Source: an uncultured Actinomycetes bacterium (GTDB taxonomy: Bacteria > Actinomycetota > Thermoleophilia > Solirubrobacterales > Solirubrobacteraceae). Taken from it: a stretch of DNA of 32,000 nt. Positions within the stretch are counted from its first letter, which is position 1; each line of letters opens with the position of its first letter. Under the pieces are notes generated by a model. The model was not told the origin of the DNA, ran no database searches, and saw only the letters and a list, made by a program, of their open reading frames with translations. Positions 742 through 19,362 of this stretch are shown here, in pieces. The position numbers were made by a program, and so were the translations under genes. The stretch is from assembly GCA_963766605.1 (NCBI GenBank), contig CAVYAT010000002.1, positions 131,439 to 163,438 of the forward strand, in the 5' to 3' direction.

Positions 742-2448
742 TCAGCGGCTGAACCCGACCGCGGCGACCCGCGGACGGCCGGTCACGGCCCTGATGACCA
801 GATAGCTTGCGTCCATCTTGTAGCCGGTAAAGGGGATGCGACTCCAGTGGAGCGCGACGTTGGTGAGAGGGAAGTCTCCGCTGTGGCCTGCGGACGTGAG
901 GTTGACGGTGGCGAGCTTGACCGGCTTGCTCTCGAACTCCTTGAAGCCGTCGAAGTTGACCACGTGGTAGTCGAACTCGACGGTGCCGCACGTGGGGCAG
1001 CGCTGCGCGATGAGCGCCGTGTGGTCCGGTGAAACGAACCCGTCCAACCCAAAGATGTCCTGGGAGATCTCGGTTTTGTTCGCACCTCCCAGCTCCACGT
1101 AGACGCCGCCGAACGCCTTCGCGTCCTTGACCTCCGGCACGGCGGTGAGCGGCTCGTCGCGGACTTCGAGGCTGTTCTCGTCATGGTGCCGCACCGATCC
1201 GGGGATCGTGGTGCACTCAGTCCGACTCCGTGAGGTGTTGCCCACCGCGTCCCTGGCGTCGACCGTCACGCAGGCCTCCGTGCCGCGGGTCACCGTCAGC
1301 GTCAGTGCCTCGCGTTTCGTCCTCTTGTACTCCCGGACGCGGCCAACACTGTCGCCGGTGGCGTCGAACCCGGTCGAGAGCTGGTCATCGACCGTGACGG
1401 TCACGTCGAACGATTTCGCGCTCGAGTCGCTCGACCACTGGGCATGCAACTTCGTGGTGAGCGAGAACCTCGCGGTGCCGAGGAGTTTCGCGACGGGGCT
1501 GGTCTCGTTGACGCTGATCGTCGGCGCCTTCTGCGGTGTGGGTGCCGGGCGGGCGGCCGCCCCGTGGGCGCGGGGCGCGGCGGGTGCCGGGAAGATCGCC
1601 ACGGTCGGCCGTTTGGGCGGCGTCACGTCGGCGGTCCACGCGTAGGAGGCCGGTGTCGGGTCGACGTTTCCTGCGTCATCGACCGCGCGGACCTGGAAGA
1701 CGTGATGCCCCGAGTGTTGAACGAAGACCGATCCGCCGGACGAGCAGGCCTGAAATGCCTGGTTGTCAAGCGCGCACTGGAACGTCGAGCCGGGCTCCGT
1801 GGAGGCAAACTGGAACTCCGGGCCGTCCTGAGCGACGATGTTCCCAGGGTTCTGAAGCGTCGTGTCCGGTGGGGTCGCGTCAACGGTCCAGCTGATCGGC
1901 TGCGAGAGCAGGTCCACGTTGCCCGCCGGGTCGACCGCCTGAATCAGCAGCGAGCGGGTCGCGTCCGCAAGGCCGCTGTAGACGACCGGTGATGTGCACG
2001 GCGCCGCTGCGGAGCCGTTCAGCGAGCACTGAAAGGTCGCCGAGAGATCAGGTGAGGTGAACGTGAACACCGCGGTCTGGGAGTTGGTCAGCGCCGGCGG
2101 CTGGCCCGTGATCACGGTCGTGGGCGACGTCAGGTCGACCGTCCACGCATAGCTGATCGGCGGGATCGCGGCGGCGCCCGTCTCGTGCACCGAGAATGTG
2201 TGGCTGCCCTCGGACAGGCCGGTCACCGTGTCGGGGGACGTGCACGAACTCGCCGCCGCCGCGTCCAGCGCACACGTGAACGCCGCCGACGCGCTGGACC
2301 CATGGAACTCGAACATCGCGGACGTGTGGTTCGCGATGGCCGGCGGGGTGCTCGTGAACGCCAGCTGAGAGGCGGCCGTGGCCGGCACGGCACCGACCGC
2401 GGCCGCGACGAGCACGACCAACAGGAACCCCCCGACTCGGCCAGTCAT
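742..2448 (-). CDS. Secreted Ig-like domain repeat protein
   Basis: ORF 742..2532. The preferred start is ATG at 2448 (MTGRVGGFLLVVLVAAAVGAVPATAASQ, a signal-peptide-like N-terminus). Three tandem ~90-aa repeats (about nt 1549-2364) share the pattern F.F......F.C.L(D/N).....C(T/S)SP......L..G.H.F.V.A.D.AGN.D....Y.W.VD..PP. A ~270-aa non-repeat C-terminal region follows. Confidence 0.85.
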   Translation of the reverse strand: MTGRVGGFLLVVLVAAAVGAVPATAASQLAFTSTPPAIANHTSAMFEFHGSSASAAFTCALDAAAASSCTSPDTVTGLSEGSHTFSVHETGAAAIPPISYAWTVDLTSPTTVITGQPPALTNSQTAVFTFTSPDLSATFQCSLNGSAAAPCTSPVVYSGLADATRSLLIQAVDPAGNVDLLSQPISWTVDATPPDTTLQNPGNIVAQDGPEFQFASTEPGSTFQCALDNQAFQACSSGGSVFVQHSGHHVFQVRAVDDAGNVDPTPASYAWTADVTPPKRPTVAIFPAPAAPRAHGAAARPAPTPQKAPTISVNETSPVAKLLGTARFSLTTKLHAQWSSDSSAKSFDVTVTVDDQLSTGFDATGDSVGRVREYKRTKREALTLTVTRGTEACVTVDARDAVGNTSRSRTECTTIPGSVRHHDENSLEVRDEPLTAVPEVKDAKAFGGVYVELGGANKTEISQDIFGLDGFVSPDHTALIAQRCPTCGTVEFDYHVVNFDGFKEFESKPVKLATVNLTSAGHSGDFPLTNVALHWSRIPFTGYKMDASYLVIRAVTGRPRVAAVGFSR

Positions 2449-2704
2449 GCGCCCCGCGCGACGATCGTTGACGTCGGGGTCGACCGTGCGGTCATGACGC
2501 TCCATGCTAACGGGCCGGTGATCAATGCGCATCTATGAGACTCATGGATCTTTGAGTGCCGCCGACAGCTCCTGACGCGAGCGGATCGGGAGCGCGGTCA
2601 GTGCGTCGCGTCCGGTGAATGCCAGCCTTCGGAAGCCTGACGGCCTTGGAGTCGCGATCTACGAAACCTTGTGTATCGAGGCCATGCCGCTGCCCACTTG
2701 CGGC

Positions 2705-4171
2705 TCAGTTCGCTGCGATCGATGCTCCGGCGTCGTCCATTTGACCCGCGCGTACGTCGAATCGCTCGCCGAGCGTGTCGAGGGTCTTGCGGTAGTGCTT
2801 GGAGTCCCGGGGCTGGGTGGCGAGGAGCGCGGTGGCCCCCGCGAGCCGCCGGACCTTCGGGTACCAGCGGTCGTAGTCGAGACCGCAATCCATGATGACG
2901 GTGGGTGGCAGGGTGCGGGCGACGCGGCCGAGGTTGTACATCGCCAGCGTGATCGAGGCCCAGATGATCGCGGACCTCGATTTCGTGGCGAGTCCTTCGA
3001 CGTCGAGTTCGTAGAGTCGTGCGGCGTGCAGCTTGCGCCGGAACATGAGGTGCGTCAGGTAGTACCCCGCGAACGATGTGAAGGGCCCCGTCACGCTTGA
3101 CCGCAGCTGGATCGACAGGACGTTCTCCGTGCTGGAGACGAACGGCTCGTAGCGATGTCCTGGCTGGGCGAGATAGCCGGTGCAGTTCACTAGCCAGCTC
3201 CCGACCGGTATCGCCAGCGATCGACCGCCGCGGAACGCGAGCGTGGGCCCGTCGGCCGTGTCGACCACGTCATCGAGATGGCCGGGTTCGATGCGCCGCA
3301 CTCCCGTGCGTACGTCGGCGTACTCGTCGTCCGACAGGTAGGCGCCGAAGAAGTTGGCCGGCGCCGCTGACGGACTGATGCCGTAGGCGTCGGTGAACCA
3401 CACGGCGACCTCCTGCTCGTTGGTGCCATCAAAACGGAGGGAGGCCTCGCGCAACATCGCGTTGACCCGGGTGCCGCTGAACCAGCGCCGCGGACCGGTC
3501 GGGAAGAACGTCTCGCGACGGCTGAACACCGTACCCGAGCCGGCCACCATGTTGAGCTCGCGCCGCGGACATTCCCGCCGCAGCAGCAGGGCGACGTCCA
3601 TGGCGGTCTTGCCGCTGCCGATGATCCAGACCGGTCCGCTGTCCTCGGGGCGCTTCGCGATCGTGCCCGACAATTCCTCGGGAGTGGTCGAGCGCACGGC
3701 CGCACTCGAGATCGGGAGCGGCGCGCTGGGCATGACGTGGTTCCCGTAGGCCTTGATCAGCCGCCTTGTCGCCAGCGCCTCGCTGCGTCCATCCGGCCCA
3801 CGGAGGGTCACCGTCACGGTGCCGCCAGCCTCGGCATGCGCGACGTACTCCCAGCCGAAACGCTCTTCGAGATCCACCTTCGTGCGAGCCACGTCGACGC
3901 AGTGGCGCAGGTGGTCGAGCACCTCGTCGCGAGTCGCCAGATGGCTCGCGGGCTTACCCAACTGCCACGTGATGTTGCCGGCGGTGAAGATCGGGTGCGG
4001 CTGGTGTAGCCGGACGAAGTCGTAGGTGTCCACCCACATCCCGCCGGCGCAGGGGCGGCTGTCGACCAGGACAACCCGGTCGTGCGCCGAGAGATAACCG
4101 CTCGCGACAGCCAGCGCATTGAGTCCCGCGATTCCGCCGCCAATGATGATCAGTTCGCTGGCCTCGTTCAC
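2705..4171 (-). CDS. FAD/NAD(P)-binding oxidoreductase (two dinucleotide-binding motifs, flavin monooxygenase-like)
   Basis: 488-aa ORF with a GTG start. There is an N-terminal Rossmann motif LIIIGGGIAGL and a second motif VWIIGSGKTAMDVALLL mid-protein. Amino-acid composition is protein-like throughout. Confidence 0.85.
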   Translation of the reverse strand: MNEASELIIIGGGIAGLNALAVASGYLSAHDRVVLVDSRPCAGGMWVDTYDFVRLHQPHPIFTAGNITWQLGKPASHLATRDEVLDHLRHCVDVARTKVDLEERFGWEYVAHAEAGGTVTVTLRGPDGRSEALATRRLIKAYGNHVMPSAPLPISSAAVRSTTPEELSGTIAKRPEDSGPVWIIGSGKTAMDVALLLRRECPRRELNMVAGSGTVFSRRETFFPTGPRRWFSGTRVNAMLREASLRFDGTNEQEVAVWFTDAYGISPSAAPANFFGAYLSDDEYADVRTGVRRIEPGHLDDVVDTADGPTLAFRGGRSLAIPVGSWLVNCTGYLAQPGHRYEPFVSSTENVLSIQLRSSVTGPFTSFAGYYLTHLMFRRKLHAARLYELDVEGLATKSRSAIIWASITLAMYNLGRVARTLPPTVIMDCGLDYDRWYPKVRRLAGATALLATQPRDSKHYRKTLDTLGERFDVRAGQMDDAGASIAAN

Positions 4172-4206
4172 GTCTCGGGCAGGCTAACGTAAAAAATAGA
4201 GACGTA

Positions 4207-4219
4207 TCCTTTGAAAGGA
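4207..4219. promoter_or_regulatory. 13-nt perfect palindrome TCCTTTGAAAGGA in an AT-rich gap upstream of the oxidoreductase gene (candidate operator)
   Basis: Read directly from the sequence. It lies ~40 nt upstream of GTG 4171 on the minus strand, next to the window's most AT-rich stretch (acgtaaaaaataga, about 4186-4199). That stretch gives TAnnnT-type -10 candidates (TATTTT, TACGTT) on the minus strand. Confidence 0.25.
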
Positions 4220-4262
4220 CGGGCGTGACCGAGCGCGCGTACGACCAGTGCTGTTGAGCGTC

Positions 4263-4287
4263 CGCGAGAGACGGACTGCTTCTCGCG
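4263..4287 (-). terminator. Candidate terminator hairpin downstream of the methyltransferase gene
   Basis: CGCGAGA (4263-4269) pairs with TCTCGCG (4281-4287), an 11-nt loop, about 35 nt after the stop at 4322-4324. No U-tract. Confidence 0.35.
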
Positions 4288-4321
4288 CGCGCATTGCAGC
4301 AGCGCCAGGGAGGAGGGTTGC

Positions 4322-5122
4322 CTATGACGGAACGTGCCCGCGGGCGGCCCACGCGCGGGCGACGAGTTCGATCGATCCGTCGGTGTTGAACGGCAGCGTG
4401 GAACGGATCCGCTGCTCGACGGCAACGCGGTCCGGTTCGGGGAGCGACATGAGGTGCGCGGGCGCGGCGCCCTTGCCGGCGCGAAACGGCGACCAGTAGT
4501 CGTCGAAGTCACGGAATCTGGTGTCGATGTCGATCGGTTCGACCTCGACGGTGTCCAGGCCCGCCGCGCGCAACGCGGTCGTCAGCGGCTCCGGGCGACA
4601 CAGGGCAAAGCGCCGGACCTCGTCGAGCTCGTTCGTGTCCGGTGACACCGCGAGCAGCGCGTCCCAGAAGTGACGCAGCATCTGCATCTCTCCGAGGTAG
4701 TCCCACACGTAGCACGCCACCGTTCCGCCGGGCCGCGCCACGCGGACCATCTCGCGCGCAGCGCGATCCGCGTCGGGCACGAAGTTCAGCACCAGCGCCG
4801 AGACGACGACGTCGACCCGACCGGCCTCGACGGGGAGATCCTCGGCGCTCCCGAGCGCGAAGCGCGCTCGGTGATCGGGGACGCACGTCGTTGCGCGCTG
4901 CACGAACGCGGTCGACGGGTCGAACCCCAGCACCTCCGTCGGCGCGTACGACGCCAGGACGCAGCTCGTCAGCGCGCCGGTTCCGCAGCCGACATCGAGC
5001 CACCGCAATCCCGGACGGGCATCCAGCCACGCGAGGAACCGAGGCGCGACCGCTCGGCTCCACCGACCCATGTAACGCTCGTATGCGTCGGCGCTGTCCC
5101 ACCGGACAAGCTCATTGCTCAC
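4322..5122 (-). CDS. Class I SAM-dependent methyltransferase
   Basis: 266-aa ORF. Motif I is WLDVGCGTGALT. An acidic loop (GFDPS) and the post-II region RFALGSAEDLPVEAGRVDVVVS are present. It starts 9 nt after the stop of the upstream SBP-domain reading frame. Confidence 0.9.
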   Translation of the reverse strand: MSNELVRWDSADAYERYMGRWSRAVAPRFLAWLDARPGLRWLDVGCGTGALTSCVLASYAPTEVLGFDPSTAFVQRATTCVPDHRARFALGSAEDLPVEAGRVDVVVSALVLNFVPDADRAAREMVRVARPGGTVACYVWDYLGEMQMLRHFWDALLAVSPDTNELDEVRRFALCRPEPLTTALRAAGLDTVEVEPIDIDTRFRDFDDYWSPFRAGKGAAPAHLMSLPEPDRVAVEQRIRSTLPFNTDGSIELVARAWAARGHVPS

Positions 5123-5131
5123 GCCGTCATC

Positions 5132-8100
5132 TCATCGAGCGCCCTTGCGCACGCATAGGTTGCCCAGATCGGCGCCGTAGACGCCGTACACCTGGCATCC
5201 CATCCGCGCCGAGAACAGCTCGTGCCCCGACTGGTTGCCGAATGCCACGAACGGCGCGGCGTCCCGCACGAGCGCTCGGTCCAGCCGCCCGTAGGCCAGG
5301 TAGCGCTTCGTCCCGCCGAGGCTGGCCGCGACGGCCAGCTGCGCGCGTGAACGGGCGTCTTGGAACTTCGGGAGCACGGTCCCGCTGGACAGCAGAACGT
5401 TGAGCATCGCGCCGGGGTCGGGGTAGTCCGGTATCCAGCCCAGCCACGCGATGTCGAACGGCGCGTGGGCGCTCGCGAGCTTCGCGTTCAGGGTCTGGTC
5501 GGGGAAGGTCTCGATCACGAGCCGGATCCCGATTGCCGCGAGGTCGGTCTTGACGATCTGTGCCTGTTGCTGGCACGGGGCAAAATCGCACGTCCACAAC
5601 ACCGCGGTCGCGCCGCGATGGTGTCCGGCAAGCGCCCGGGCTCGGCGGACATCCGGCCGCAGCGGGTATCCGCGCACGTCGCCATAACCGGGGATGCCCG
5701 GGGGGAGGTAGTCCTCGGTGACATGCTCGGGCAGCGGGTCGTACTCGTCGCCGAGGCGCGCCAGCGCCGATCGATCGATCGCGTAGTTGACGGCTTGGCG
5801 CATCCGTCGGGAGGCGAACAGCGGCCGCTGCGAGTTGAGCGCCAGGAAGTCGAGCTGGGGTGCGGCCTGGACGAAATACTGCTGGCGGCCATGCCGCGCC
5901 GCCCGGCTGCCGGCGCCGTACCGCGCGGCGAGCCAGGGCCCGTCGGTCCGATCGATCTCGCCTTCGAGCGCGTAGTCCGCGGTTCCCGCCCGCACCTGCG
6001 CGATCGCGTGGCGTGAGGACACGCCGACGGTCATGACGATCCGCTGCGGCCGGTGCGGGCGGGCGCCGTGGTAGTTGCGGTTGCGGGTGAGGACGATCCC
6101 CTGGCCGGGCGTATACGACGCGACCCGGTATGGGCCCGCCGACGGGATGACGCGCAGCCCACGGGGGTCGATCGGCGTATCCGACGGCACGGCACACAGC
6201 TCGGGCAGGGTCGTCCGCGCCGGCAGGTCGGGCGCGGGCGCGACCATGCGGATCGTCAGCGTATTCCCGCGGGCCACGACGCCCGAGATGTGCGGTGCCC
6301 GGCCGGCCATGTACGCCGCTGCCCCGGCGATGTCCGCGAACACGTACGCGACGGGGCTCTTCATCCGCGGGTTGAGGGTGCGCTCGATCGAGTCCTTGAA
6401 CGTCTGCGCCGTAACCGCCTGGTTCGACGGCGGCGAGAAGCGGAAGCCCGGCCGGATCACGAACGTGTAGCTACGACCGTCGGCTGAGACGGACGGCAGC
6501 GCCTGCGCGACCTCCGGGACGATCTCGGACGCCGCCGCGCCGCCGCGGTCGGGATAGTTCAACAACTTTGCGCAGGTCGCGTAGAGCAGCTGCGCCGACT
6601 CGCCGTCGTAGGAAAGCGCCGGGTCCATTGATGAGACGTCGTACGGCGCGTCGATGCGCACCGTGCCGCCGCCCGCTACCGCCCCGGCCACCCCCGCCGA
6701 TGGCACCGTCCGGGCGTCGACCGTGACCCAGGCCCGCCCGCGCGCGACCACGATCGCCTGCGGGCTGCCGCCGACCCCGATCGTCGCGACGGCTTTCCTG
6801 GTACGCGGATCGATGCGCGTCACCGTTCCGTCGCCGCTGTTGGCCACCCAGATCGCGCCGGCGCCGGCCGCCACTCCCGCCGGCGCATTGCCGACCGGGA
6901 TCGTGTGGTGACGGCCTGGGTGCCCGGATCGATCCTCAGCACGGCGTCGTCGGCGAAGTCCGCAACCCAGACGCCGCCGTAGCCGATCGCGATACCGGTC
7001 GGGTAGTGACCGACCGCGATCGATGTCGCGAGCCCGGTCGGGTCGACCCGCGTGACGTTGTCGGCATCGGTGTCGGTGATCCAGACCGCGTCGGCTCCGA
7101 CGCCCAGGCCGGCGGCGGCCGCGCCGGGGTCCAGGCGCCGCAGGACGCGTCCGGACCGCGGCGCGAGCCGCGTCAGCTGGCCCGCGAACGGCGCGACCCA
7201 CAGGGGCGCCTGCGCGCGCGGCGATCGCCGCCGGCGTGCCGGCCGCGACGCTGGCGATCCGGACCGTGCTGGTCGATCGCGTCGAATTGAGGATTGATGC
7301 GCACCACCGGGACCGATGTCGCGTTGGGGCTGGTGCCACTGACCCAGATCCCGCCCCCGGCGACGGCGATCCCGGTCGGCTGGCCGCCGAGCGTCAGGGT
7401 CCGGAGGGTCGACAGCGTCCGTGCGTCGACGCGCGAGATCGTCTGGTCGTCCTGGTTTGCGACCCACAGCGACCCGGACGCAAACGCGATCGCGCCGGGC
7501 CGCGCGCCGACCGTGACCTGGGCTACCACCCGGTTCGATCGCATGTCGATCGCCGCCACGGAGTTGGGCTCGGGGCGCAGGCCGTCACTCGAGCCGCCGG
7601 CGAATTCGGTGACCCCCAGTGCGACTGCGGCCACGAGCAGTAGCCCCGCGCCGGCGAGGACCAGCGCGCGGCCGCGCCTGCGGTCGCCCGGGGGACGATC
7701 GCGCGGGCGGTCGGACCGCGCCGTGGGCGCCGCGTCCAGGGCCGGATCGTGGGTGAGGATCTGTTGCTCGAGCGCGCGAAGCTCCGGCCCCGGCTCCAGG
7801 CCGAGTTCCTCGTCGAGCGCGGCGCGGCCGCGGCGATAGGCCTCGAGCGCGTCGGCCTGGCGCCCGCTTCGGTACAGCGCGAGCATCAGCTGCCCGAGGA
7901 GCCGCTCGCGGTGCGGATGGCGTCGGGCGAGCGCCTCGAGCTCGCCAACCAGCTCGCGGTGCGCGGCCGAGCATCAGGTCAGCGTCGGCGCGGTCCTCGG
8001 TTGTCGACAACCGCGCCTCCTCGAGGCGGGCGATCTCACCCTGGGCGAACGACTCGTAGGCCAGGTCGGCCAGCGGCTCGCCGTGCCACAGCTCGAGCGC

Positions 8101-8474
8101 CTCGACGAGCTGCTGGCGTGCAGCGGCCGCGTCACCGTCGTCCAGCGCCCGGCGCCCGTCGGCGGCCATCGCCGTGAACACGTCCGCGTCGACCTGCTCG
8201 GGCGCAGCGACCAGCTCGATAGCCGCCCCCGGGTCAGGAGCACGTCGCTTCCGAGCGCCTTGCGTAGGTGGGAGACGTAGCCCTGAAGCGTCTTTGCCGC
8301 CGTCGGGGGCGGTCGCTGTTCCCACAACTCATCGATCAGACGGTCACTCGGGACCGCCGCCCCGCGACGCAGTAACAACAGCGCGAGCAGCGCGCGTTGC
8401 CGCGGCCCGCCGAGTGCGAGCGCGCGCTGATTCTCGAGCACCTCCAGCGGGCCAAGGATCCGGAACTCGAGCAT
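5132..8474 (-). pseudogene. SARP/AfsR-type regulator fused to TM helix, YVTN/NHL-like beta-propeller repeats and a family-5 ABC substrate-binding domain; continuous only across five frame changes
   Basis: wHTH from ATG 8474: MLEFRILGPLEVLENQRALALGGPRQRALLALLLLRRGAAVPSDRLIDELW...LQGYVSHLRKALGSDVLLTRG. BTAD: ELVAAPEQVDADVF...ALELWHGEPLADL...ARLEEARL, then, in another frame, HRELVGELEALARRHPHRERLLGQLMLALYRSGRQADALEAYRRGRAALDEELGLEPGPELRALEQQIL. TM helix: ALVLAGAGLLLVAAVALGV. About 6 propeller blades follow (G.RP.AIA...GSLWVAN..D.T.SRVD pattern). SBP_bac_5-like domain: VRIDAPYDVSSMDPAL...WIPDYPDPGAML. Frame switches lie near 8226-8233 (C5 run), 7958-7966, 7265-7272, 7203-7206 (G4 run) and 6902-6912. 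Confidence 0.85.
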
Positions 8475-8520
8475 GGTTTGTGGTCGCCCCGGCGACACGC
8501 TACCGCCGCGTGCACCGATC

Positions 8521-8548
8521 TCCAACCGCTTCCAACCGTCCGCCAACC
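8521..8548 (+). promoter_or_regulatory. Three direct heptad repeats (T/G)CCAACC at 10- and 11-bp spacing (candidate SARP box)
   Basis: TCCAACC at 8521-8527, TCCAACC at 8531-8537 and GCCAACC at 8542-8548. They sit in the 141-bp divergent gap between the SARP gene start (8474, minus) and ATG 8616 (plus). Only a weak A2/T6 -10 candidate (GAGGGT, 8558-8563) follows. Confidence 0.45.
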
Positions 8549-8615
8549 GGGCCGCGCGAGGGTGTGCGCCGAATCCGATCGCATCAGGCGATCGGCAGAC
8601 CAGGAAGGTTCGGAG

Positions 8616-8900
8616 ATGTCCCCGCACAATCGCTCGATCAAGACGGCACTGGCACTGGCCCTCGCCGCGACCGCGGTCACCCCGGCGGCGGCCTCGGCCC
8701 GGTTTGATCTCAACCCGCCGCCGGTCCATGCCGCAGCGCCGCCCGTTCAGGTCGTCCACAGCGCGGCCGGCGACGGCTTCGACTGGGGCGACGCCGGCAT
8801 CGGCGCCGCCGGTGCCCTGGGCCTGTCGATGCTCGTCGGCGGCGGCGGCGCGCTGGTCGCGGGGAAGCGTCGCGGCCACCGCGCCACGGCCACGCCGTAG
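8616..8900 (+). CDS. Small secreted protein with Pro-rich linker and C-terminal motif-TM-basic tail
   Basis: ATG 8616 is preceded by GGAAGG..GGAG. The 94-aa product is MSPHNRSIKTALALALAATAVTPAAASA (signal-like), PPPVHAAAPPVQ, then GFDWGDAGIGAAGALGLSMLVGGGGALVAGKRRGH. It is the downstream part of ORF 8397..8900. Confidence 0.6.
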   Translation: MSPHNRSIKTALALALAATAVTPAAASARFDLNPPPVHAAAPPVQVVHSAAGDGFDWGDAGIGAAGALGLSMLVGGGGALVAGKRRGHRATATP

Positions 8901-8912
8901 CGGACAGATCCG

Positions 8913-9549
8913 ATGCTCCGGACGACCACCAGCCTCGCCGCAATCGTCGTCGCGGCGGGGCTCGCGGCCTCGGCCCGCGCCGCGACGATCCACCTGACCC
9001 GAACCGACGACCCGAGCTCGGGCGGCACGCGGTGCAGCACCCTCCTGTTGGTCAACACCGACTGCTCTCTGCGCAACGCCCTGAAGGCCGGCCGGCCCGT
9101 ATCTCGTCGAGCAGGAGGACTTGCCGCTGATCATTGCTCACGACGTCACGCTTCAGGGCACCGGCGCGCGGACGTCAACGATCGAGCGGTCGGGCGGGAT
9201 CGGCGGGGTCCTGTACATCAGCGCCGCCGACGCGACGGTAACGATCGACGGGGTGACGATCACCGGTGGGCGCGAGACGCTCGAGGGTGGTGGAGTCCTT
9301 AACCAAGGCGACCTGAGAATCAACAACAGCGCGGTGGTCGACAACGCCATCCTGGCGCAGTCGGGTACGCCCGCCTTCGGGGGCGGGATCTACAGCGACG
9401 GCCGGCTGGACCTCTTCGACACGACAGTCAGCGGCAACGAGGCGGTCAGCGACGGAACCGACTCAACGCGCCGCAACGTGCGACACAACGACCGCGACGG
9501 ACGCGAGCGTGAGACGACGACTCGCGCCCACTCGGCTCACCAACGGTGA
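8913..9549 (+). pseudogene. Secreted right-handed parallel beta-helix repeat protein, frameshifted and 3'-truncated
   Basis: Signal peptide MLRTTTSLAAIVVAAGLAASARA and a DCSLRNALKA motif (the CSLR(E/D)AI motif is typical at the N-terminus of beta-helix proteins) are in the 8913 frame. LPLIIAHDVTLQGTGARTSTIERSG...VTIDGVTITGG...LRINNSAVVDN...FGGGIYSDGRLDLFDTTVSGNEA is in the 9121 frame. The switch falls in ggccggccggccc (9086-9098). Repeat character is lost after ~9455, with a stop at 9547-9549, and only ~3 helix turns are present. Confidence 0.7.
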
Positions 9550-9699
9550 GACGCTGACCCCCAGACATGCCGCAAACGTCACGGCCATAACCGCGGTGGC
9601 GCTCCCGGCGATCGCGTGCGTCCAGGCCAACGTGACCCAAGCACTCGACCCTTTGGCGGTTGACGAGCGCGAATTCCCGAGTGTCGAGCAAGCCATCGC

Positions 9700-9846
9700 G
9701 TGGGGCCGTCGACAAGCGCGGTCGTGCTGGTTCGCGTGGGCTACTCCGACTACCACTCCGCCGGTGAAGAGCGCCCGCTCGACTACCCGAAGTGGCCGCC
9801 CACGGAAGACGCTATCCGCCGAGAAACGCTGCGAGACCCACCCTGA
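9700..9846 (+). CDS. Small hypothetical protein (possibly the 3' part of a ~70-aa gene starting near 9632 in another frame)
   Basis: GTG 9700 to TGA 9844-9846 gives VGPSTSAVVLVRVGYSDYHSAGEERPLDYPKWPPTEDAIRRETLRDPP. The adjacent frame upstream reads ...LDPLAVDEREFPSVEQAIAWGRRQA, which is protein-like, so a frame switch near 9716-9722 is possible. Confidence 0.3.
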   Translation: MGPSTSAVVLVRVGYSDYHSAGEERPLDYPKWPPTEDAIRRETLRDPP

Positions 9847-9981
9847 CCGCCCGCAGCAACAGGACGCGATGCTCAATCCTCGAAAGCGCGCAGAGCAGCA
9901 ACGCCCTGCCTGCGGGCGACGTGCCACGACGGCCACCCTTCCCCCGACGTATGGGAGACGCGGCGTAGCGGCTTGTCGCTC

Positions 9982-10031
9982 CCGTTGATCTTGATGTCGC
10001 TCTAACCCGGACTCCTGCGTTCCGCCCAAAG
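9982..10031. repeat. Copy A of a ~48-50 nt imperfect direct repeat
   Basis: ccgttgatcttgatgtcgctctaacccggactcctgcgttccgcccaaag. Hand alignment to copy B gives 33 of the first 37 columns identical and 41 of 50 overall. Confidence 0.6.
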
Positions 10032-10071
10032 CCAGGGGGTGCTTGACACGTGTCGACAGTGGCTGCGCCGC

Positions 10072-10350
10072 CTAGCGCGCGACGTACTCGTGGATCGGGA
10101 ACTCGTCTATCTCGGGCTGGACATCGACTCCGGAGCTAGCCATCGCAGGCCCGACGCGCTCGGCGATGAACGTGTCGAACTGGGCGCGCGACTCCCAGAA
10201 GTCGAGTACCCGCCAACCGCTTTCGGTCGGGCCGGAGGCGGAGAAGATGAGCCCGTCGGGGTGGTTGCTGCGAGTGTCGATCAGAGCATCGACGCGGTCG
10301 AATGCCTCTGCCTCCACACCGGGAAGGGTGATTCGGATTCCTACGGCCAT
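10072..10350 (-). CDS. Small ABM/dimeric alpha-beta-barrel-like protein (92 aa)
   Basis: ATG 10350 is preceded by GGAG 6 nt upstream. Product: MAVGIRITLPGVEAEAFDRVDALIDTRSNHPDGLIFSASGPTESGWRVLDFWESRAQFDTFIAERVGPAM... The size and the pattern (PDGLIFhaaGP..gGWrV.D.WES...F..F) resemble ferredoxin-fold ABM-like proteins. This is the downstream part of ORF 10072..10590. Confidence 0.7.
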   Translation of the reverse strand: MAVGIRITLPGVEAEAFDRVDALIDTRSNHPDGLIFSASGPTESGWRVLDFWESRAQFDTFIAERVGPAMASSGVDVQPEIDEFPIHEYVAR

Positions 10351-10392
10351 GTCGGTCTCCTCGTATTCGGTGCGGCAACGATACTTGGGCCG

Positions 10393-10440
10393 CCGTGGAT
10401 CTTGGTGTCGCTCTAGCCGGACTCCTGCCTTTCGCGAAGG
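10393..10440. repeat. Copy B of the ~48-50 nt imperfect direct repeat
   Basis: ccgtggatcttggtgtcgctctagccggactcctgcctttcgcgaagg. It starts 411 nt after copy A and lies 43-90 nt upstream (minus strand) of the ABM-like gene start. Confidence 0.6.
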
Positions 10441-10616
10441 AGGACTGGGAGCGGACGATCCTGAAGTCTGTGACCGCGGCACCGTGCGGTCGTAGCGACG
10501 GCGTCGAAATGGCGAGAGGTCTGCGTGGCTCGCTGGCGGTGGCCGGGAGTTCGGCATCGACCGGTGCGCCGTGTGTGTCGTAGCGCTCAATCAAAGCGAC
10601 AGCGGATCGGCAGTCC

Positions 10617-11927
10617 CTAGTCGGTTGACAGCGGTTGGACGTGGACGACGTCGTGGACGTGCGAGCCGGTGTTGCTGCAGGTGGTGAGGTAGTGCTGATT
10701 GCCGGTGCAGTCTGCTGGCGGTAGCGGTGGCCCGAGATGGGCGATGCCAGCTTCGATGGTCGCGGTGTCGAAGCGTTGACGCAGCGCGAGGCCGTCAAGT
10801 GGGACGTGGAATTGCTCCGCGTGTGCGGCGAGCAGGCCGAAGCCCTGACCGATCGGGATGTATGCCGACTGGTCGCTGCCGTCGGGGCAGCCGTCCATGC
10901 TGTCCTCGCCGACACCGGGCAACGTGATGTTGAGGTCTGACAGCGTGCCGCTTGGCTGGAGTGTCAAGTAGGGCGCCGGAACCGACGTCGGTGAACGCAC
11001 GATGGCCCCGTTGCATGCGTAGGCCTGGCTGGTGCCGCCACAGTCGTTTTCGGGAAAGAAGTTGCCCGATGCCGACCACGTTCCTGTGATCTGACCGGTG
11101 CCGTTGGCGAGGGCGACGCGCTTGATCGCGCCGTTCGCCAGGACAGTGATCGGCGGGAACGTCGCGGTCTGGGTCATCGTGCCGTTCTCGGTTCCCTTGG
11201 CCTGGCAGGACGCATCGCCGGCGCCGAGTGTCGCGCTCTCGGAGTTGGCGTAGGTGACGGTGTAGGTGACCGAGATCTTGAACTCCAGCGGTCGGCTCTT
11301 TCTCAAGACCGCCGTCGGCGATCGCGCGGCCTGGTAGAGGTCGCCGAGCGCGAACTGCTCGTGCTGCTTGCCGCCTCCGGCCATCGCGAACATCGCGTTG
11401 AGGATGCTCCTTGGGTCACAGTCGAGGCTCTTTTGCGCTGCCATCGCGCGTCGCGCGTAGCGGGCCTCGTTCTTACGCTCGAGGCGCGCCGCCTCGAGTT
11501 CGACGGCCGCCTTTTTGAGGTGGTGGCGACGGGCGCCGCTCGTCTTCTCGGCGAGCGCGTCGAGTTGTTTCTCGATCCGCGCGTAGTCGCCGTCGGAGGT
11601 GAACGCGGGCTCGAAGTCGCGCTTCAGGCCTTCCTCGGCGAGCGATATCGCGCGGTCGAGCAGCGCACGCGTCTCGGTGGCTTCGTCAGGGTCGAGCCGT
11701 CCCAGCCGAGCCGTACCGCACGCGTCATTGATCAAATCGGAGTCGGCGCCGTGCTGCTGGCTGAACTGCTGGATCGCGGCCGTCTTGGACTCGAGCGTCC
11801 GGCGCACCTGGCGCAGCACGGCGTTGTCGCCCTTCGCGACCGCGGTGGCCGGCGATAGCACGAGTGCCCCAGCCGCGGCAGCGCTGAGCAGCGCCATCGC
11901 CGCCCGATCGACCCAAAAGCGGCCCAT
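10617..11927 (-). CDS. Secreted hypothetical protein (helical N-terminal half, Cys-containing beta-rich C-terminal half)
   Basis: 436-aa ORF. The signal-like N-terminus is MALLSAAAAGALVLSPATAVAKG. About 180 aa of charged, helix-like sequence follow (LDALAEKTSGARRHHLKKAAVELEAARLERKNEARYARRAM). Then comes a T/S/G/N-rich region with several Cys (DASCQAKG, NDCGGTSQAYACNG, DGCPDG, ADCTGNQHYLTTC). I do not recognise a family. Confidence 0.75.
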   Translation of the reverse strand: MGRFWVDRAAMALLSAAAAGALVLSPATAVAKGDNAVLRQVRRTLESKTAAIQQFSQQHGADSDLINDACGTARLGRLDPDEATETRALLDRAISLAEEGLKRDFEPAFTSDGDYARIEKQLDALAEKTSGARRHHLKKAAVELEAARLERKNEARYARRAMAAQKSLDCDPRSILNAMFAMAGGGKQHEQFALGDLYQAARSPTAVLRKSRPLEFKISVTYTVTYANSESATLGAGDASCQAKGTENGTMTQTATFPPITVLANGAIKRVALANGTGQITGTWSASGNFFPENDCGGTSQAYACNGAIVRSPTSVPAPYLTLQPSGTLSDLNITLPGVGEDSMDGCPDGSDQSAYIPIGQGFGLLAAHAEQFHVPLDGLALRQRFDTATIEAGIAHLGPPLPPADCTGNQHYLTTCSNTGSHVHDVVHVQPLSTD

Positions 11928-12040
11928 GAACCGACAACCTAGCCCAGCCGACGCGCGTGTGTGTCAGTTCCAGGCATCTCGAACGACGACCGCCTTGCCG
12001 GAAGCGATCACGCTTGCGGGAGTCGCGTTGGCGACTGGAA

Positions 12041-12403
12041 TCAGCAGATCGGGCCGGAGTCGGACACGGTCGCGTGTAGCAGAGCCCGCACGGTGGTCGG
12101 ATCGACCTGCTCGGGGCGGCGAAAACGGACACAGCCCTTGCCGACCGAGAGTCCACCGAGTCTCTGGGCGTTCGCGTTGAGCGCTGCCTGACGAAGGATG
12201 TACAGGGAGATGTAGGCCTTCTGGCTCGCGAATGCGACTTCGACCGCATCGTCCCGCAAATAGGCCGGCATTCCGTGCCTCATCGCCTCATCGAAACCGG
12301 ACAGCTCTTCTCGACACAATCGCCGCAGCAAAGTGAGTGCGCTTCGGCGCTCGAGCGAGGCTTCGCCGATGTACTCGTCGATCGTCGCTGCCCTGCTCTG
12401 CAT
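12041..12403 (-). CDS. DUF1801 (YdhG-like) domain protein
   Basis: 120 aa: MQSRAATIDEYIGEASLERRSALTLLRRLCREELSGFDEAMRHGMPAY...VAFASQKAYISLYI. The pattern (IDEYI, ...GMP.Y......vaFa.qK.yisLY) is typical of DUF1801. Confidence 0.75.
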   Translation of the reverse strand: MQSRAATIDEYIGEASLERRSALTLLRRLCREELSGFDEAMRHGMPAYLRDDAVEVAFASQKAYISLYILRQAALNANAQRLGGLSVGKGCVRFRRPEQVDPTTVRALLHATVSDSGPIC

Positions 12404-12538
12404 AGCCCGCCACGAGCGTAGCGCGGGGCACGCCGCGGCTTCAGCCCACCCGGATGCGAGATTTCAGGCGACCAGGGCGGATCGAGGCGCACCCAACCTG
12501 AGCGATGAATTCACGCGACGGGGTAGGTCTGTACCGGC

Positions 12539-13096
12539 ATGAGCGGTAGAAAAGTGGTTCTCAAAATGGTGATATCCCTCGACGGTTTCGCCACGAGCCC
12601 CGACGGGACCCATGAATGGATGTTCGAGTGGTTCGGCGACGACTCCAATGAGCGCAATCTCCGCGCGCTCGAGGAGGCCGGCGTTCACGCGATGGGCCGC
12701 CGCAGCTACGAGATCATGGGCCCGCACTGGGCCGCGTCGGAGGGGCCGATCGCAGCCGCGATGAACGAGAAACCGAAGGCTGTTTTCTCCCGCACCCTCG
12801 AGAAGGCGCAATGGGGACCGGCCGAGATCTTCGGCGGGGACCTCACCGCGGCGATCGCGGACCTGAAGGCCCGCGATGACGACGGAACGGTCCTGGTCCA
12901 TGGTGGTCCCACCTTGGCCACGTCGCTGACGCGCCTGGGCCTCGTCGACGAATACCAGCTGTCGACGGTCCCGATTGCGATCGGCGCCGGCCGCAGCCCA
13001 TTCGCAGAACTGGACGAGCACCTGAAGCTCGACGTCGTCGAACAGCAGCGCTTCCGAAGCGGAGCCCTCGCCCAGATCCTGGTGCCGAAGCGATAG
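12539..13096 (+). CDS. Dihydrofolate reductase family protein (RibD C-terminal domain-like)
   Basis: 185 aa: KVVLKMVISLDGFATSPDG...MGRRSYEIM...KAVFSRTLEKAQWG...VLVHGGPTLATSLTRLGLVDEYQLSTVPIAIGAGRSPF. This is the classic RibD_C/YwjB-like pattern. Confidence 0.85.
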   Translation: MSGRKVVLKMVISLDGFATSPDGTHEWMFEWFGDDSNERNLRALEEAGVHAMGRRSYEIMGPHWAASEGPIAAAMNEKPKAVFSRTLEKAQWGPAEIFGGDLTAAIADLKARDDDGTVLVHGGPTLATSLTRLGLVDEYQLSTVPIAIGAGRSPFAELDEHLKLDVVEQQRFRSGALAQILVPKR

Positions 13097-13132
13097 ACGA
13101 CGCCGTCGCGCACGATGTCGGCTGTCACTGCG

Positions 13133-13164
13133 ACCGGCGTGGCCGGGAACCGCTCCACGCCGGT
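13133..13164. terminator. 10-bp perfect hairpin between convergent genes (candidate bidirectional terminator)
   Basis: ACCGGCGTGG (13133-13142), 12-nt loop, CCACGCCGGT (13155-13164). It lies between the stops at 13094-13096 (+) and 13203-13205 (-). Confidence 0.55.
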
Positions 13165-13202
13165 GACGGTGACGTTCCTGGTGCGTTGGCGCTGGTTCGC
13201 GA

Positions 13203-13808
13203 TTACTCCAGCGTGTTCAGGTCGGTCGGGCACCGCGGGTCGACGACGATCGTTCCGGGGCGCCACACCTCGCGGTCGAGGAAGAGCCACTGTCCGTGGA
13301 GCTTCACGAACTTGTCGGTGTACGTCCCCATGATCGAGATGTGGGGGTTGTTGGGGGCGGTGAGACTCTGGCTGACGATCGACACGTACGAGTGTCCCGT
13401 CGCCTGGTTGCCGTTGCCCTGGATCAGGATGTTGTAGGGCATGTGCTGCTCGTGATGGTCCTGCTGAAACTTCCCGAACGTCTGCGCCAGGTTGCGCAGC
13501 TGATCGGTGCCGACGTCGCAGATGCTCGGGTCGTGGAACGTGCCGTTGGGGGCGAACACGTTTGTGACGAAGTCGTCGGCCTTCCCGCCGTCGAGATCCT
13601 GGCTGTAGCGGGCGTACAGGTCGAGGATGTCGAGCCTGTCCTTGACCGAGAGCCCGCTGTGGCCGTTGTTGAACGGGCCGCGGTGCTTGTCGTGGCCGCC
13701 GTGGGCGAAAACGCCCCCGGCCATGACCAGCGCAGCGACCGCCGCGGTAAGGACGGCCGTGGCGGCGATCGTGCGCGCCTGGCGCATGCGGGACTTGGAT
13801 GTGGGCAT
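13203..13808 (-). CDS. Secreted nuclear-transport-factor-2 / SnoaL-like family protein
   Basis: ORF 13203..13820. ATG 13808 is preferred because GAGGTGGAG lies 6 nt upstream. The signal-like N-terminus is MPTSKSRMRQARTIAATAVLTAAVAALVMAGGVFA. LSVKDRLDILDLYARYSQDLDGGKADDFVTNVFAPNGTF...GTYTDKFVKLHGQWLF fits the SnoaL_4/NTF2 pattern. Confidence 0.75.
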   Translation of the reverse strand: MPTSKSRMRQARTIAATAVLTAAVAALVMAGGVFAHGGHDKHRGPFNNGHSGLSVKDRLDILDLYARYSQDLDGGKADDFVTNVFAPNGTFHDPSICDVGTDQLRNLAQTFGKFQQDHHEQHMPYNILIQGNGNQATGHSYVSIVSQSLTAPNNPHISIMGTYTDKFVKLHGQWLFLDREVWRPGTIVVDPRCPTDLNTLE

Positions 13809-14004
13809 TGCGAACTCCACCTCTCTGAGGTCGTAGGTAGATAACCCCTGCAGAGCCCCGCGGCTGGACGTGGATGTGCCTTAGGCGCCCGATGGTCCGC
13901 TCGACCGGTGTGTGAGCGAGACCACCCTCCCCTGCGTACGGCGCTCATCACCGGGTCTTACCCACTGGACAAAGCATCAAGCCACGTTCTCGGCCCCGCG
14001 AACG

Positions 14005-14138: not shown

Positions 14139-16085
14139 CTACTTCACCGTCAGCTTCAACTTCAGATCCACCCGGTTGCCGAACGTGTCGATCAGCCGCA
14201 CGCTCTCGGTCAGCTTCTGGTGACGGTGCGCGCGCAGACTGAACGTGAGCTTCACGTGCTTGCGGTCGAGCGTCCCCTGCTTGACGGCGAGGATCGTCGT
14301 CCCGCGGCGCACGACGGCGAAGTACTGACACGGGCACGCCGCGTCGCTGACCTTGCTGAGCACGTCGGCGAGCGAGCGCTTGCCATGGACGGTCTTCTTG
14401 GCCAGCGTCAGCTTGCCGCGCACCTTGCGCAGTGCCGTCCGCGCGTCCTCGGCGGCGCTCGTCACCTTCACGGCGACGGTTGCGGCGGTGCTCGCGCCGG
14501 CGTTGTCGAATGCCGTCACGCGTGCGGTGAACGTGCCCTTCGTCGGATAGATGTGACTGGCGGTAGGCCCGGAGGTCACGCGGTCGGCGACGCCGTCGCC
14601 ATCGAAGTCCCACTCGTAGCGCCCGATCGACCCGTCGGGGTCAGACGCCGTCGCCGTGAACGAGAACGACTTCGTCGTCGAGCCCGATCCCGGAGCGACG
14701 GCCAGCGAGACGACCGGCGGCTGGTCGAGCGGGTCGGGCGCGGTGACGAGCCGGGCAACCGCGAACTGAGACGGCACCGGGTTGGGCGAGGGCGGCACCG
14801 TCGGCGGCGCCAGTACGCGGAACGTCCCGACGGTGACCAGGCCCGCCGGCGTCAGGACGCTCGCCGCGTGCGAGTACGAATCGGTCGGCCCGTTGAACCA
14901 CGACGTGAACGGCCCATAGCCGTTGATCGGGTTGTCGCCGAACGACAGATCATGTGTGCCGTCGGCGTTCAGCCGGTTGGCGTAGCCGGAGCCGCGCACC
15001 CCGAGCCCACCGGCGGTGGCGACGACGTCGGCCCCGATCACGATGACACGACCGTCGTCGCCGATCACGAGGTCGCTCGGGATCGCGAGGCCGCCGTTGC
15101 CGATCTGCGTAACACCGCTTCCGCCGCCGAACGACGTGGCCACGTGCCCGTCAGGCGTGAAACGGACGACGGTCTCCGCGGCGGCGGCCGCGGCGAGGTT
15201 TCCGATGACCGCAAGACCCGCGGCCGAGACCGCCGGCTGACCGACGGCGGGGCCCTGAAGCGTGGCCGGCGAGCTCGGCAGCGTCGCAACCCCAGCGGTG
15301 CCGTAGGTTGGATCGGGCTGACCGCCCGTCGTGAAGCGCACGGCTGACAGCTCGTGCGTCGTGTTGTCGGCCTGCACACCGTTGGCCACGACGATCGGCT
15401 TCCCGTCGCTCTGGAGCACGACCCGGCCGATCGCCGCGTTGGTCCCGGCGTTGATTGCCTCGGAGCCGACGCCGGCGGTACCGAACGACGCGTCCTGGAC
15501 GCCCGCCGCATTCAGGCGGGCGATGCCGGCCGTCTTGGCGCCGACCGGGCCGTCGAAGTACACGAACCCGTTGCGGCCGTCGACGGCCACGCCGGAGACC
15601 GCGGTGAACGGAGCCGGGAGCGCCGTGATTGTCGCCGGTGCGGCGACGCCGCCGGCCGAGACGGTGTCGACGGCAAGGCTGGGAATCGCTGCGTTGAAGA
15701 CGACAGCCCCGACGAGGTAGGACCCGTCGGGCCGCTGCGCCACCGCGATCGCCCCGCTCGCGCTGTTCGGCGGGGCGATCGGGATCTCCACGTGCCCGGC
15801 AGTCCCGAACCCGCTTCGCGGTGTGCCCGACGCGTCGAGCGCGACCAGGCCGAGGTCGGACGTCGTCGAGGGCGCGGTCTGCGCGGCGCGCCCCGCGACG
15901 ATCAGCCCGCCGTCCGAGGTCGCTGCGACCGCCACAGCACCATCGACGAAAGCGCCGACATGCTGGGTGACCTCGCCGGTGCCGGCGCCGAACGTCGTGT
16001 CCAGCGCGCCGGGGTGGGCGCCGGCCGCGGCGGGAAGGCCCAGCAGGAGGGACAGGGACAGGGCCAGGGCGGCGCGAATTTGCAT
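14139..16085 (-). CDS. Secreted delta-60 repeat (beta-propeller-like) protein with PKD domain
   Basis: 648 aa. Signal peptide MQIRAALALSLSLLLGLPAAAGA. Recurrent motifs are LDTTFG.G.G, DGGLIVAG, DASFGTAG, PDPTYGTAG and DLSFGDN, spaced ~50-60 aa apart. The PKD-like segment is FSFTATASDPDGSIGRYEWDFDGDGVADRVTSGPTASHIYPTKGTFTARVTAFDNAGAS. A ~100-aa basic C-terminal domain follows. Confidence 0.85.
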   Translation of the reverse strand: MQIRAALALSLSLLLGLPAAAGAHPGALDTTFGAGTGEVTQHVGAFVDGAVAVAATSDGGLIVAGRAAQTAPSTTSDLGLVALDASGTPRSGFGTAGHVEIPIAPPNSASGAIAVAQRPDGSYLVGAVVFNAAIPSLAVDTVSAGGVAAPATITALPAPFTAVSGVAVDGRNGFVYFDGPVGAKTAGIARLNAAGVQDASFGTAGVGSEAINAGTNAAIGRVVLQSDGKPIVVANGVQADNTTHELSAVRFTTGGQPDPTYGTAGVATLPSSPATLQGPAVGQPAVSAAGLAVIGNLAAAAAAETVVRFTPDGHVATSFGGGSGVTQIGNGGLAIPSDLVIGDDGRVIVIGADVVATAGGLGVRGSGYANRLNADGTHDLSFGDNPINGYGPFTSWFNGPTDSYSHAASVLTPAGLVTVGTFRVLAPPTVPPSPNPVPSQFAVARLVTAPDPLDQPPVVSLAVAPGSGSTTKSFSFTATASDPDGSIGRYEWDFDGDGVADRVTSGPTASHIYPTKGTFTARVTAFDNAGASTAATVAVKVTSAAEDARTALRKVRGKLTLAKKTVHGKRSLADVLSKVSDAACPCQYFAVVRRGTTILAVKQGTLDRKHVKLTFSLRAHRHQKLTESVRLIDTFGNRVDLKLKLTVK

Positions 16086-16202
16086 GTCCGCAGACTACGC
16101 ACCGCTTCCACGGAAATTGCCGTTAACCGGCGGATATCCGAGGCGTCGCACCCGCGCGCTAGGGTCTGGCCGCCATGTCCGCTGGGTCAACAAGGGGAAT
16201 CG

Positions 16203-16586: not shown

Positions 16587-16602
16587 CCGGAGCTGACATA
16601 TA

Positions 16603-16633
16603 GGGTGGGTGCGCGTTTGCCGCGTGCCCACCC
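16603..16633 (+). terminator. 13-bp stem hairpin between two membrane-protein genes
   Basis: GGGTGGGTGCGCG (16603-16615), loop TTTGC, CGCGTGCCCACCC (16621-16633): 11 Watson-Crick pairs plus 2 G-U pairs. It begins 17 nt after the stop at 16584-16586 and is followed by GAAGGGA and the next start. No U-tract. Confidence 0.55.
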
Positions 16634-16648
16634 GCGAAGGGACTGACT

Positions 16649-19326: not shown

Positions 19327-19362
19327 AGGCTAGCCCCTGGACGCGCTGCGCGTGCGTGGCCG

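Follow-up and report, generated by a model that had tools for sequence, protein, structure and literature searches.

A predicted transmembrane SARP regulator with propeller and family-5 substrate-binding domains, read across frame breaks in a Thermoleophilia contig

SARPs are textbook examples of soluble, pathway-specific antibiotic activators of Streptomyces. Here, we describe a gene whose conceptual product joins a SARP head to what is predicted to be a membrane sensor. The gene lies on the minus strand of contig CAVYAT010000002.1, from an uncultured member of the Solirubrobacteraceae (Thermoleophilia). It was studied within a window of 32,000 nt (~70% G+C), which is the whole stretch of DNA analysed and to whose coordinates all positions below refer. 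The gene can be read only across several frame breaks. On balance, we consider its product a probable member of a large, uncharacterised Thermoleophilia family (Solirubrobacterales, Gaiellales) of putative SARP-type transmembrane (TM) one-component activators.

The regulator shares its N-terminal head, a winged helix-turn-helix (wHTH) followed by a bacterial transcriptional activation domain (BTAD), with AfsR of Streptomyces coelicolor, EmbR of Mycobacterium tuberculosis and the large SARPs. Like AfsR and EmbR, it has predicted targets that are direct repeats one helical turn apart, the last of them 8 bp away from the -10 element, as well as a C-terminal extension that would modulate the head. 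However, the extensions of AfsR and EmbR (NOD/TPR, FHA) are soluble and cytoplasmic and are controlled by phosphorylation or ATP, whereas that of the regulator consists of a TM helix and a predicted extracytoplasmic propeller and family-5 substrate-binding protein (SBP) domain, hereafter SBP5. Also unlike AfsR and EmbR, the regulator shows no linkage to a biosynthetic gene cluster.

In its predicted layout, the regulator resembles the transmembrane transcriptional regulators (TTRs) of the ToxR/TcpP/CadC type, which have a cytoplasmic N-terminal OmpR-type wHTH, one TM helix and a sensor outside. These TTRs act on DNA from the membrane, often with a small single-pass partner (ToxS, TcpH), and a conserved small membrane protein with a GFDWG motif is likewise encoded next door to the regulator. 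The differences are several. The ToxR/TcpP/CadC proteins have no BTAD, their periplasmic domains are small and dedicated, without a propeller or SBP fold, and their hosts are of other lineages than the Thermoleophilia. The partner of a ToxR-type protein is co-transcribed downstream, whereas the GFDWG gene is divergent and has the predicted operator in its promoter. With the family-5 (cluster C) SBPs of the Opp/Dpp/Nik importers, the regulator shares the full PF00496 domain; yet here the domain is fused behind a propeller to a transcription factor and is not a free lipoprotein or periplasmic protein. A single-pass architecture with an extracellular NHL/YVTN propeller sensor is also found in the PknD-type Ser/Thr kinases of actinobacteria, but these have a kinase output in place of a DNA-binding head and no SBP domain.

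Published accounts of such an architecture are sparse. A 2024 review of SARPs knows only small, medium, large and SARP-LAL classes, all soluble, and the word 'transmembrane' does not occur in it. In the accessible parts of a 2023 census of TTRs (Demey et al., PMC10269533), 213 TTRs have a BTAD, and single-TM 'Trans_reg_C,BTAD' proteins of 885-986 aa from Actinobacteria are listed. These are like the regulator in that respect; the same parts of the census give counts, with no discussion of these proteins and no analysis of sensor, operator or partner, and SBP_bac_5 is absent from the accessible text and supplement text. Our full-text literature searches found no published description of the architecture, and the initial annotation was fair in calling it poorly described. 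What our analysis adds to this background is an operator prediction, a partner gene kept across loci, a single locus with divergent alleles, and a neighbouring gene that is genuinely truncated.

Translated in three frames, the minus strand between 5100 and 8600 gives six pieces (8474-8226, 8223-7963, 7961-7269, 7267-7205, 7203-6904 and 6901-5135) that join into a stop-free protein of about 1111-1113 aa. The reading phase is 2 from the ATG at 8474, 0 from ~8226, 2 from ~7961, 1 from ~7267, 0 from ~7203 and 1 from ~6901 to the stop codon. The closest match to the conceptual protein is P0001, an intact protein of 1110 aa with 85-86% identity over 100% of the length, encoded at L001:10001-13333, where DNA identity to the window gene is 86.6%. 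Judged by these alignments, the similarity is far beyond chance. The six joined pieces therefore read as one collinear protein, as had been proposed. Its parts are as follows.

5132-8474, minus strand: whole conceptual coding sequence of the predicted transmembrane SARP regulator, from three-frame translation and orthologue alignment; stop codon at 5132-5134.
8247-8408, minus strand: Trans_reg_C, an OmpR/PhoB-type wHTH (aa 23-76; Pfam E 2.5e-8).
7755-8193, minus strand: BTAD (aa 94-239; PF03704 profile 1-146/146, E 1.6e-47).
7611-7667, minus strand: single predicted TM helix, ALVLAGAGLLLVAAVALGV, of 19 hydrophobic residues with RRRGR before it, between BTAD and propeller.
6632-7574, minus strand: seven-bladed YVTN-type beta-propeller (Pfam propeller families at aa 300-612; TIGR02276 E 4e-24).
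5381-6526, minus strand: SBP_bac_5 (PF00496), complete and unbroken (aa 648-1029; profile 1-364/368, E 5.4e-49).

Pfam and NCBIfam searches with the frame-corrected translation thus recover every domain that had been named, in the stated order and in one protein. NCBIfam matches include YVTN repeats (E 4e-24) and, at E 2.9e-59, the N-terminus of AfsR. The wHTH, the BTAD, the one TM helix and the complete SBP_bac_5 of the initial annotation stand; its count of about six blades does not, because an AlphaFold model of the intact orthologue P0001, made from an 18-sequence alignment, has a propeller of 28 strands, that is, seven blades (pLDDT, the model's per-residue confidence, 75-93). The SARP head is also confidently modelled (pLDDT 80-95), and between the two lies a lone helix (277-289) with a disordered linker on either side. 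Foldseek aligns the head of the model with AfsR (8k60_J; TMt 0.89, rmsd 2.8 A, 45% identity) and the propeller with YVTN (1l0q) and YncE structures. Sequence searches of PDB chains with P0001 agree: AfsR and EmbR are matched at E 1e-44 to 1e-46, 1l0q, an archaeal YVTN propeller, is matched as well, and the nearest solved SBP relative is 8upi, a peptide-binding SBP (E 5e-33). The SBP part has sequence similarity to peptide-, nickel-, opine- and signal-binding SBPs. With its wHTH, a BTAD directly after it and the heptamer-repeat pattern described below, the head is by these sequence features a bona fide SARP domain.

RRRGR-ALVLAGAGLLLVAAVALGV has the form of a classic N-in single TM segment, which would leave RRRGR on the cytoplasmic side. 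The ToxR/CadC-like topology that had been suggested is borne out to the extent that a DNA-binding domain and a TM segment (the 19-residue segment after RRRGR; helix 277-289 in P0001) occur in one polypeptide. Propeller and SBP5 folds are typical of extracytoplasmic proteins, and such a location is predicted for both here. Among 18 intact homologues, six cysteines are invariant, all of them in the SBP part and none N-terminal of the TM helix, which fits an oxidising, extracytoplasmic location. No ABC permease or ATPase gene lies within ~10 kb in the window, L001, L080 or L082, and the sole ABC-type gene at L081 is an unrelated ABC2_membrane gene 7.4 kb away. The lack of flanking ABC permease and ATPase genes in the window and the four other loci points to the SBP domain being a sensor and not part of an importer. 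Fused as it is, and with no cognate transporter genes, it does not group with the binding proteins of ABC importers.

The architecture is abundant in databases and therefore not a rarity. A search of 5.8 billion proteins (E<=1e-10) gave 7,727 matches, of which the best 120 are without exception uninterrupted proteins of 1066-1161 aa with 96-100% query coverage and the same Pfam set; more than 100 are intact proteins of ~1100 aa with the same architecture and 58-85% identity to the conceptual protein. In these orthologues, which the initial annotation had proposed to look for, the pieces are thus always one uninterrupted gene product of ~1100 aa. Source annotations are generic ('YVTN family beta-propeller protein', 'ABC transporter substrate-binding protein', 'BTAD domain-containing putative transcriptional regulator'), and a few database sequences related to the propeller part carry the label Ser/Thr kinase. 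Genome matches are to metagenome-assembled genomes (MAGs) of Solirubrobacterales, Solirubrobacteraceae, Gaiellales and other Thermoleophilia. In a large subfamily (~580-650 aa; P0246-P0360), the SARP head, TM helix and propeller occur without SBP_bac_5, which suggests that the SBP module is an add-on to an older SARP-TM-propeller design.

Between the regulator and the divergent small gene lie elements that read as a SARP operator and promoter.

8511-8549, minus strand: predicted SARP box, three CGGTTGG heptamers and a degenerate CGGTGCA on the regulator strand.
8558-8563, plus strand: candidate -10 hexamer GAGGGT of the small-gene promoter (conserved as NANNGT), 8 nt past the last heptamer, which ends at 8549.
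8575-8595, unstranded: perfect palindrome, CCGATCGC-N5-GCGATCGG, located past the candidate -10 and before the small gene's ribosome-binding site.
8616-8900, plus strand: small gene of 94 aa; its product has a signal peptide and a short variable region, followed by GFDWGDAGIGAAG and then by a TM helix with a basic tail.
8497-8502, minus strand: TAGCGT, a -10-like hexamer ~25 nt upstream of the regulator start.

Read on the plus strand, CCAACCG occurs at 8522, 8532 and 8543 and TGCACCG at 8511, with start-to-start spacing of 11/10/11 nt. The three-heptamer pattern is unique within the window (0.01 expected). A SARP box stands just upstream of the regulator in ten loci (L001, L002, L005, L011, L080-L083, L092 and L097) and is kept down to 42% regulator protein identity. 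In published SARP targets, heptamers are directly repeated every 11 (or 22) bp and the 3' one stands 8 bp away from the -10 element (PMC10936776); the geometry of the predicted box matches this rule as a sequence pattern. In an alignment of five loci (A1), the A, G and T of the candidate -10 hexamer are invariant and the stretch that links the repeats with the start of the small gene is gap-free. The small-gene promoter lacks a sigma-70 consensus, as expected for an activator-dependent promoter. The arms of the palindrome are invariant in four of the five loci, with one uncompensated change in L081. Such invariance without covariation suggests a protein-binding site and not an RNA hairpin, and the palindrome may be the operator of a second regulator. 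Upstream of the regulator itself, GTAGCGT is invariant in the five loci of A1. In the window and L001, 8 nt separate TAGCGT from the degenerate fourth repeat; in L080-L082, an insertion of 30-60 nt comes between the two, so autoregulation is not a conserved feature.

The small gene has homologues of 89-151 aa at L001:9575-9859, L080:7568-7837, L081:7338-7793, L082:7479-7793 and L092:1904-2209, which, like the window protein, have a signal peptide and a variable region, then the motif GFDWG(D/S)A(G/A)(I/V)GA(A/G)G, a TM helix and an Arg-rich tail, and in every case diverge from the regulator. It occupies the same divergent position next to the regulator in the window, L001, L080, L081, L082 and L083, and the exact window protein is also encoded in L083. 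The GFDWG motif was found as well in L006, L011, L014 and in L092, whose regulator is 42% identical. Genes after the small gene differ from locus to locus. The small protein has no Pfam or NCBIfam family match and no similarity to ToxS or TcpH. We also note that its layout recalls C-terminal sorting signals. From the position of the predicted operator, the small gene is likely a direct target of the regulator, and its product may be a membrane partner of the regulator.

A mechanism can be proposed on this basis. The ectodomain of propeller and SBP5 would bind a small extracellular ligand which, going by the nearest solved relatives, could be peptide-like, opine-like or a metal chelate. Binding would alter oligomerisation or conformation across the membrane. 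In a next step, the SARP heads would line up next to one another on three to four CGGTTGG heptamers, one helical turn apart, as AfsR does on the afs box. With the last heptamer 8 bp upstream of a weak -10, they would recruit RNA polymerase to the promoter of the divergent small gene and the genes beyond. More speculatively, the juxtamembrane and TM part of the small protein, which is conserved and rich in small residues, might pack against the TM helix of the regulator in the manner of ToxS or TcpH. Two points limit this mechanism: DNA binding, ligand and topology are all predicted from sequence, and the SBP part of the P0001 model is poor and of low confidence.

Between identical flanks, the strains of a single population have highly divergent sensor alleles (~70% identity), a pattern that hints at alleles being replaced like cassettes and at diversifying selection on what the sensor detects. 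A wider reading, which we advance only tentatively, is that sensor (SARP-propeller-SBP5), operator (CGGTTGG) and target or co-component (GFDWG) form an undescribed module, widespread in soil Thermoleophilia, with diversifying sensor alleles. Were this so, the window copy could be a freshly silenced allele.

Breaks in the window gene were placed by global DNA alignment with the intact gene L001:10001-13333.

Break 1, 8219-8233, minus strand: net -1 nt (~8230), in and after a G5 run.
Break 2, 7960-7964, minus strand: extra G at 7962, GCCGC[G]CACC, outside a homopolymer.
Break 3, 7268-7272, minus strand: extra A at 7270, GACC[A]GCAC, outside a homopolymer.
Break 4, 7203-7208, minus strand: extra C at 7206, in a C run (a G run on the plus strand).
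Break 5, 6903-6907, minus strand: missing G at 6905, CACCAC-ACG, outside a homopolymer.

Break 2 falls within the BTAD and breaks 3-5 within the propeller. The five interruption sites of the initial annotation are thus 1-nt indels relative to L001, at ~8230, 7962, 7270, 7206 and 6905. Break 1 is where the initial annotation needs correcting. There, a conserved GGGY is encoded in the +1 frame between 8233 and 8219, where P0001 has LLTRGGGYELV, which is better explained by two events ~14 nt apart. Break 1 is therefore probably two events, giving six indels in all. All five or six frame-breaking lesions are 1-nt indels, and there are no in-frame stop codons. Relative to L001, the window gene also has a compensating pair of indels at 7708 and 7683, in the non-conserved cytoplasmic linker, and a 9-nt insertion at ~6685 that keeps the frame.

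Whether the breaks are real had been left open, rightly, and the evidence leans towards assembly error. In our judgement, they are probably residual indel errors in the long-read metagenome consensus of a GC-rich, strain-variable stretch, and the gene is probably intact in the organism. The protein bears no mark of decay. A relative-rate count by hand, with P0002 and P0004 as outgroups, gives 46 window-specific and 56 P0001-specific amino acid changes. Across ~253 columns invariant in 18 aligned intact homologues, the window copy deviates at four places (R131H, P453A, L648I and L740M) and intact P0001 at three (V649, A946 and L1061); a fifth invariant residue, Y86, is lost in the window copy solely through frame break 1. 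There is thus no accelerated protein evolution and no sign of relaxed selection. All indels lie within 1.33 kb of the 3.34-kb gene, in its 5' 47% (p ~0.01-0.02 for five to six uniformly placed events). The lack of acceleration, the lack of stops and the clustering of the indels fit a local, indel-only error process better than gene decay.

An independent assembly of the same locus suggests how such errors could arise. L083 (ENA assembly ERZ25039534, contig_74973) is 5.8 kb long; many ENA long-contig matches of the family are short fragments. Its flanks equal those of the window except for eight extra-base indel differences and two substitutions, which indicates an indel-dominated error profile of such assemblies. 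MAGs related to the window (Microflora Danica bins) come from Nanopore-only metaFlye assemblies with one round of Medaka (PMC12313526). Going by contig naming and accession series, the window may stem from the same project. At window ~5185-8348 (L083:~990-4130), L083 carries a different allele of the same gene (~65-75% identity), with sharp breakpoints inside the first 42 codons and the last ~17 codons. This switch could mean that one strain's allele has replaced another's like a cassette, or that the assembly changes path in its graph. Divergent alleles at this stretch imply a heterogeneous population, and hence fewer reads per allele than for the shared flanks; allele heterogeneity is therefore a plausible local cause of consensus errors.

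Several observations count against an origin in consensus error. Over its 3' 1.2 kb, this variable stretch is free of errors. L165 (a Logan contig from run ERR10755946) differs from window 4163-6407 (2245 nt) by one substitution and no indel; the overlap covers the last 1276 nt of the regulator and ends at 6407, before the first break met. At all eight indel differences from L083, the window consensus is correct, as homologues or Pfam agree, so the window is accurate right up to the gene. At least 15 other window genes, some of them equally GC-rich, have contiguous full-length domain matches; intact genes include DUF2252 (1-390/392), AlkZ-like (1-329/329), YmdB, aminotransferase, Ddl, AI-2E, LysE and methyltransferase. 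With flanks and genes this clean, five to six errors in 1.3 kb would be unusual for the contig, and general sloppiness of the window consensus is ruled out. Three of the five break sites lie outside homopolymers, and the choice-of-anchor-Q gene next door, which is probably under common control, has a true truncation that would leave the regulator under weaker selection. Genome, metagenome and protein collections yielded no second assembly of the window allele across the break sites. The searches for an intact conspecific copy gave at best 64% identity among genome contigs and 62% among metagenome contigs; three protein searches gave at best 85% over the full length (P0001) and 62-77% for break-spanning segments.

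A side observation concerns the methyltransferase gene at 4322-5122. L083 differs there by 1-nt indels at 4517, 4552 and 4657 and by one substitution, and its indels restore the frame after 47 codons. The window version has a contiguous Methyltransf_23 match and is identical to L165. Compensated indel errors can thus hide inside an open reading frame (ORF) in GC-rich DNA.

The foremost rival is that the breaks are real and the gene is a very recent pseudogene, which decayed after its divergent regulon lost a large secreted choice-of-anchor-Q protein. Divergently upstream of the regulator, the window and L001 both have the 94-aa gene followed by the gene of a secreted protein of 700 aa whose N-terminus is CSLREA-like and which contains a choice-of-anchor-Q domain. 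Of the latter gene, the window keeps a remnant.

8913-9480, plus strand: choice-of-anchor-Q / CSLREA remnant, with a frame-shifting deletion of ~13 codons near 9090.

Homology of the remnant to the L001 protein ends after TTVSGNEAVS (~9480), and the rest of the 700-aa gene together with the EthD gene of L001 is replaced by 4.4 kb (9500-13900; G+C 65-67%) with genes for a 436-aa unknown protein, DUF1801, RibD_C and SnoaL_4. Because the junctions also occur in the independent L083, this lesion is real. Deletion and truncation in a neighbour, common to two independent assemblies, speak for decay of the regulator, as do the confinement of the breaks to one gene amid clean flanks and clean genes, the break sites outside homopolymers, and a locus in flux, where another strain has a different allele. 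Yet selection shows no relaxation, by the 46 against 56 lineage-specific changes and the four against three deviations at invariant sites. Five to six neutral indels should have been accompanied by tens of extra substitutions and some stops, and none are seen. Every indel lies in the 5' 47% of the gene, and SARP box, promoter elements and small partner gene have all stayed intact. Real decay is possible, but we think it unlikely.

A compromise, in which one or two indels are real (a very recent inactivation) and the remainder are consensus errors, seems to us improbable. The homopolymer sites at 8230 and 7206 look like typical long-read errors and the three other sites less so, but the errors of L083 relative to the window are also mostly outside homopolymers, so sequence context cannot separate errors from real indels. 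Programmed ribosomal frameshifting or phase-variable on/off switching, for which two sites in short G/C runs could be cited, would require one mRNA to be shifted five or six times, in both directions, at runs of only 4-5 nt without a conserved slippery heptamer, at sites where the orthologues are uninterrupted throughout. As for a soluble SARP, a propeller protein and a free SBP encoded by distinct genes with individual starts, gene callers do split such loci (L083: 487-aa and 482-aa products), but more than 100 single-gene orthologues match the pieces collinearly from end to end, each change of frame is an offset of 1 nt, and the junctions fall inside the BTAD and propeller blades, without start codon or ribosome-binding site. 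Both of these last proposals are ruled out, for practical purposes, by the uninterrupted orthologues and the DNA alignment.

More widely, window 14139-21359 is syntenic with L001:158-7130, in inverted orientation, with genes for a PKD/DUF5122 protein, a ~416-aa protein, DUF2252, an AlkZ-like protein and LysE. In L001, the closest intact locus, parB and dnaA are ~4 kb and ~9 kb away from the regulator and belong to an origin cluster (L001:17195-23333) of the order parB-parA-gidB-jag-yidC-rnpA-rpmH-dnaA. The window is not syntenic on the origin-cluster side, where 742-5122 is occupied by genes for a methyltransferase, an FAD oxidoreductase and a Big_13 protein.

Two further ORFs of the window deserve mention. 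A YmdB-like ORF (28222-29409, minus strand) runs 138 codons (28222-28640) beyond its domain end (profile 251/253 at residue 257), and its tail overlaps a convergent GT87 gene; the tail could reflect a lost stop, a 3' frame error or a real extension. An intact GtrA-like gene (26321-26803, plus strand) overlaps the 5' part of a 688-codon ORF (26548-28614, plus strand). The GT87 domain begins only at residue 434 of that ORF, so the real GT87 start is probably near 26800. A frame break suspected at this GtrA/GT87 junction turned out to be two genes.

Our results carry a caution for the reading of long-read metagenome contigs, in which multi-frameshift 'pseudogenes' need a relative-rate check and read support before interpretation. 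As to the family itself, the architecture is an abundant, uncharacterised variant of the SARP and of the transmembrane one-component regulator. Because its predicted operator, the geometry of that operator and a conserved putative partner can be read from the DNA, the system is directly testable. A SARP head that is, by prediction, wired as a membrane sensor occurs in thousands of genes of abundant, barely cultured soil Thermoleophilia, outside biosynthetic clusters. The roles of SARPs would thus be wider than supposed, and the ToxR/CadC class would gain an actinobacterial type fused to a ligand-binding protein.

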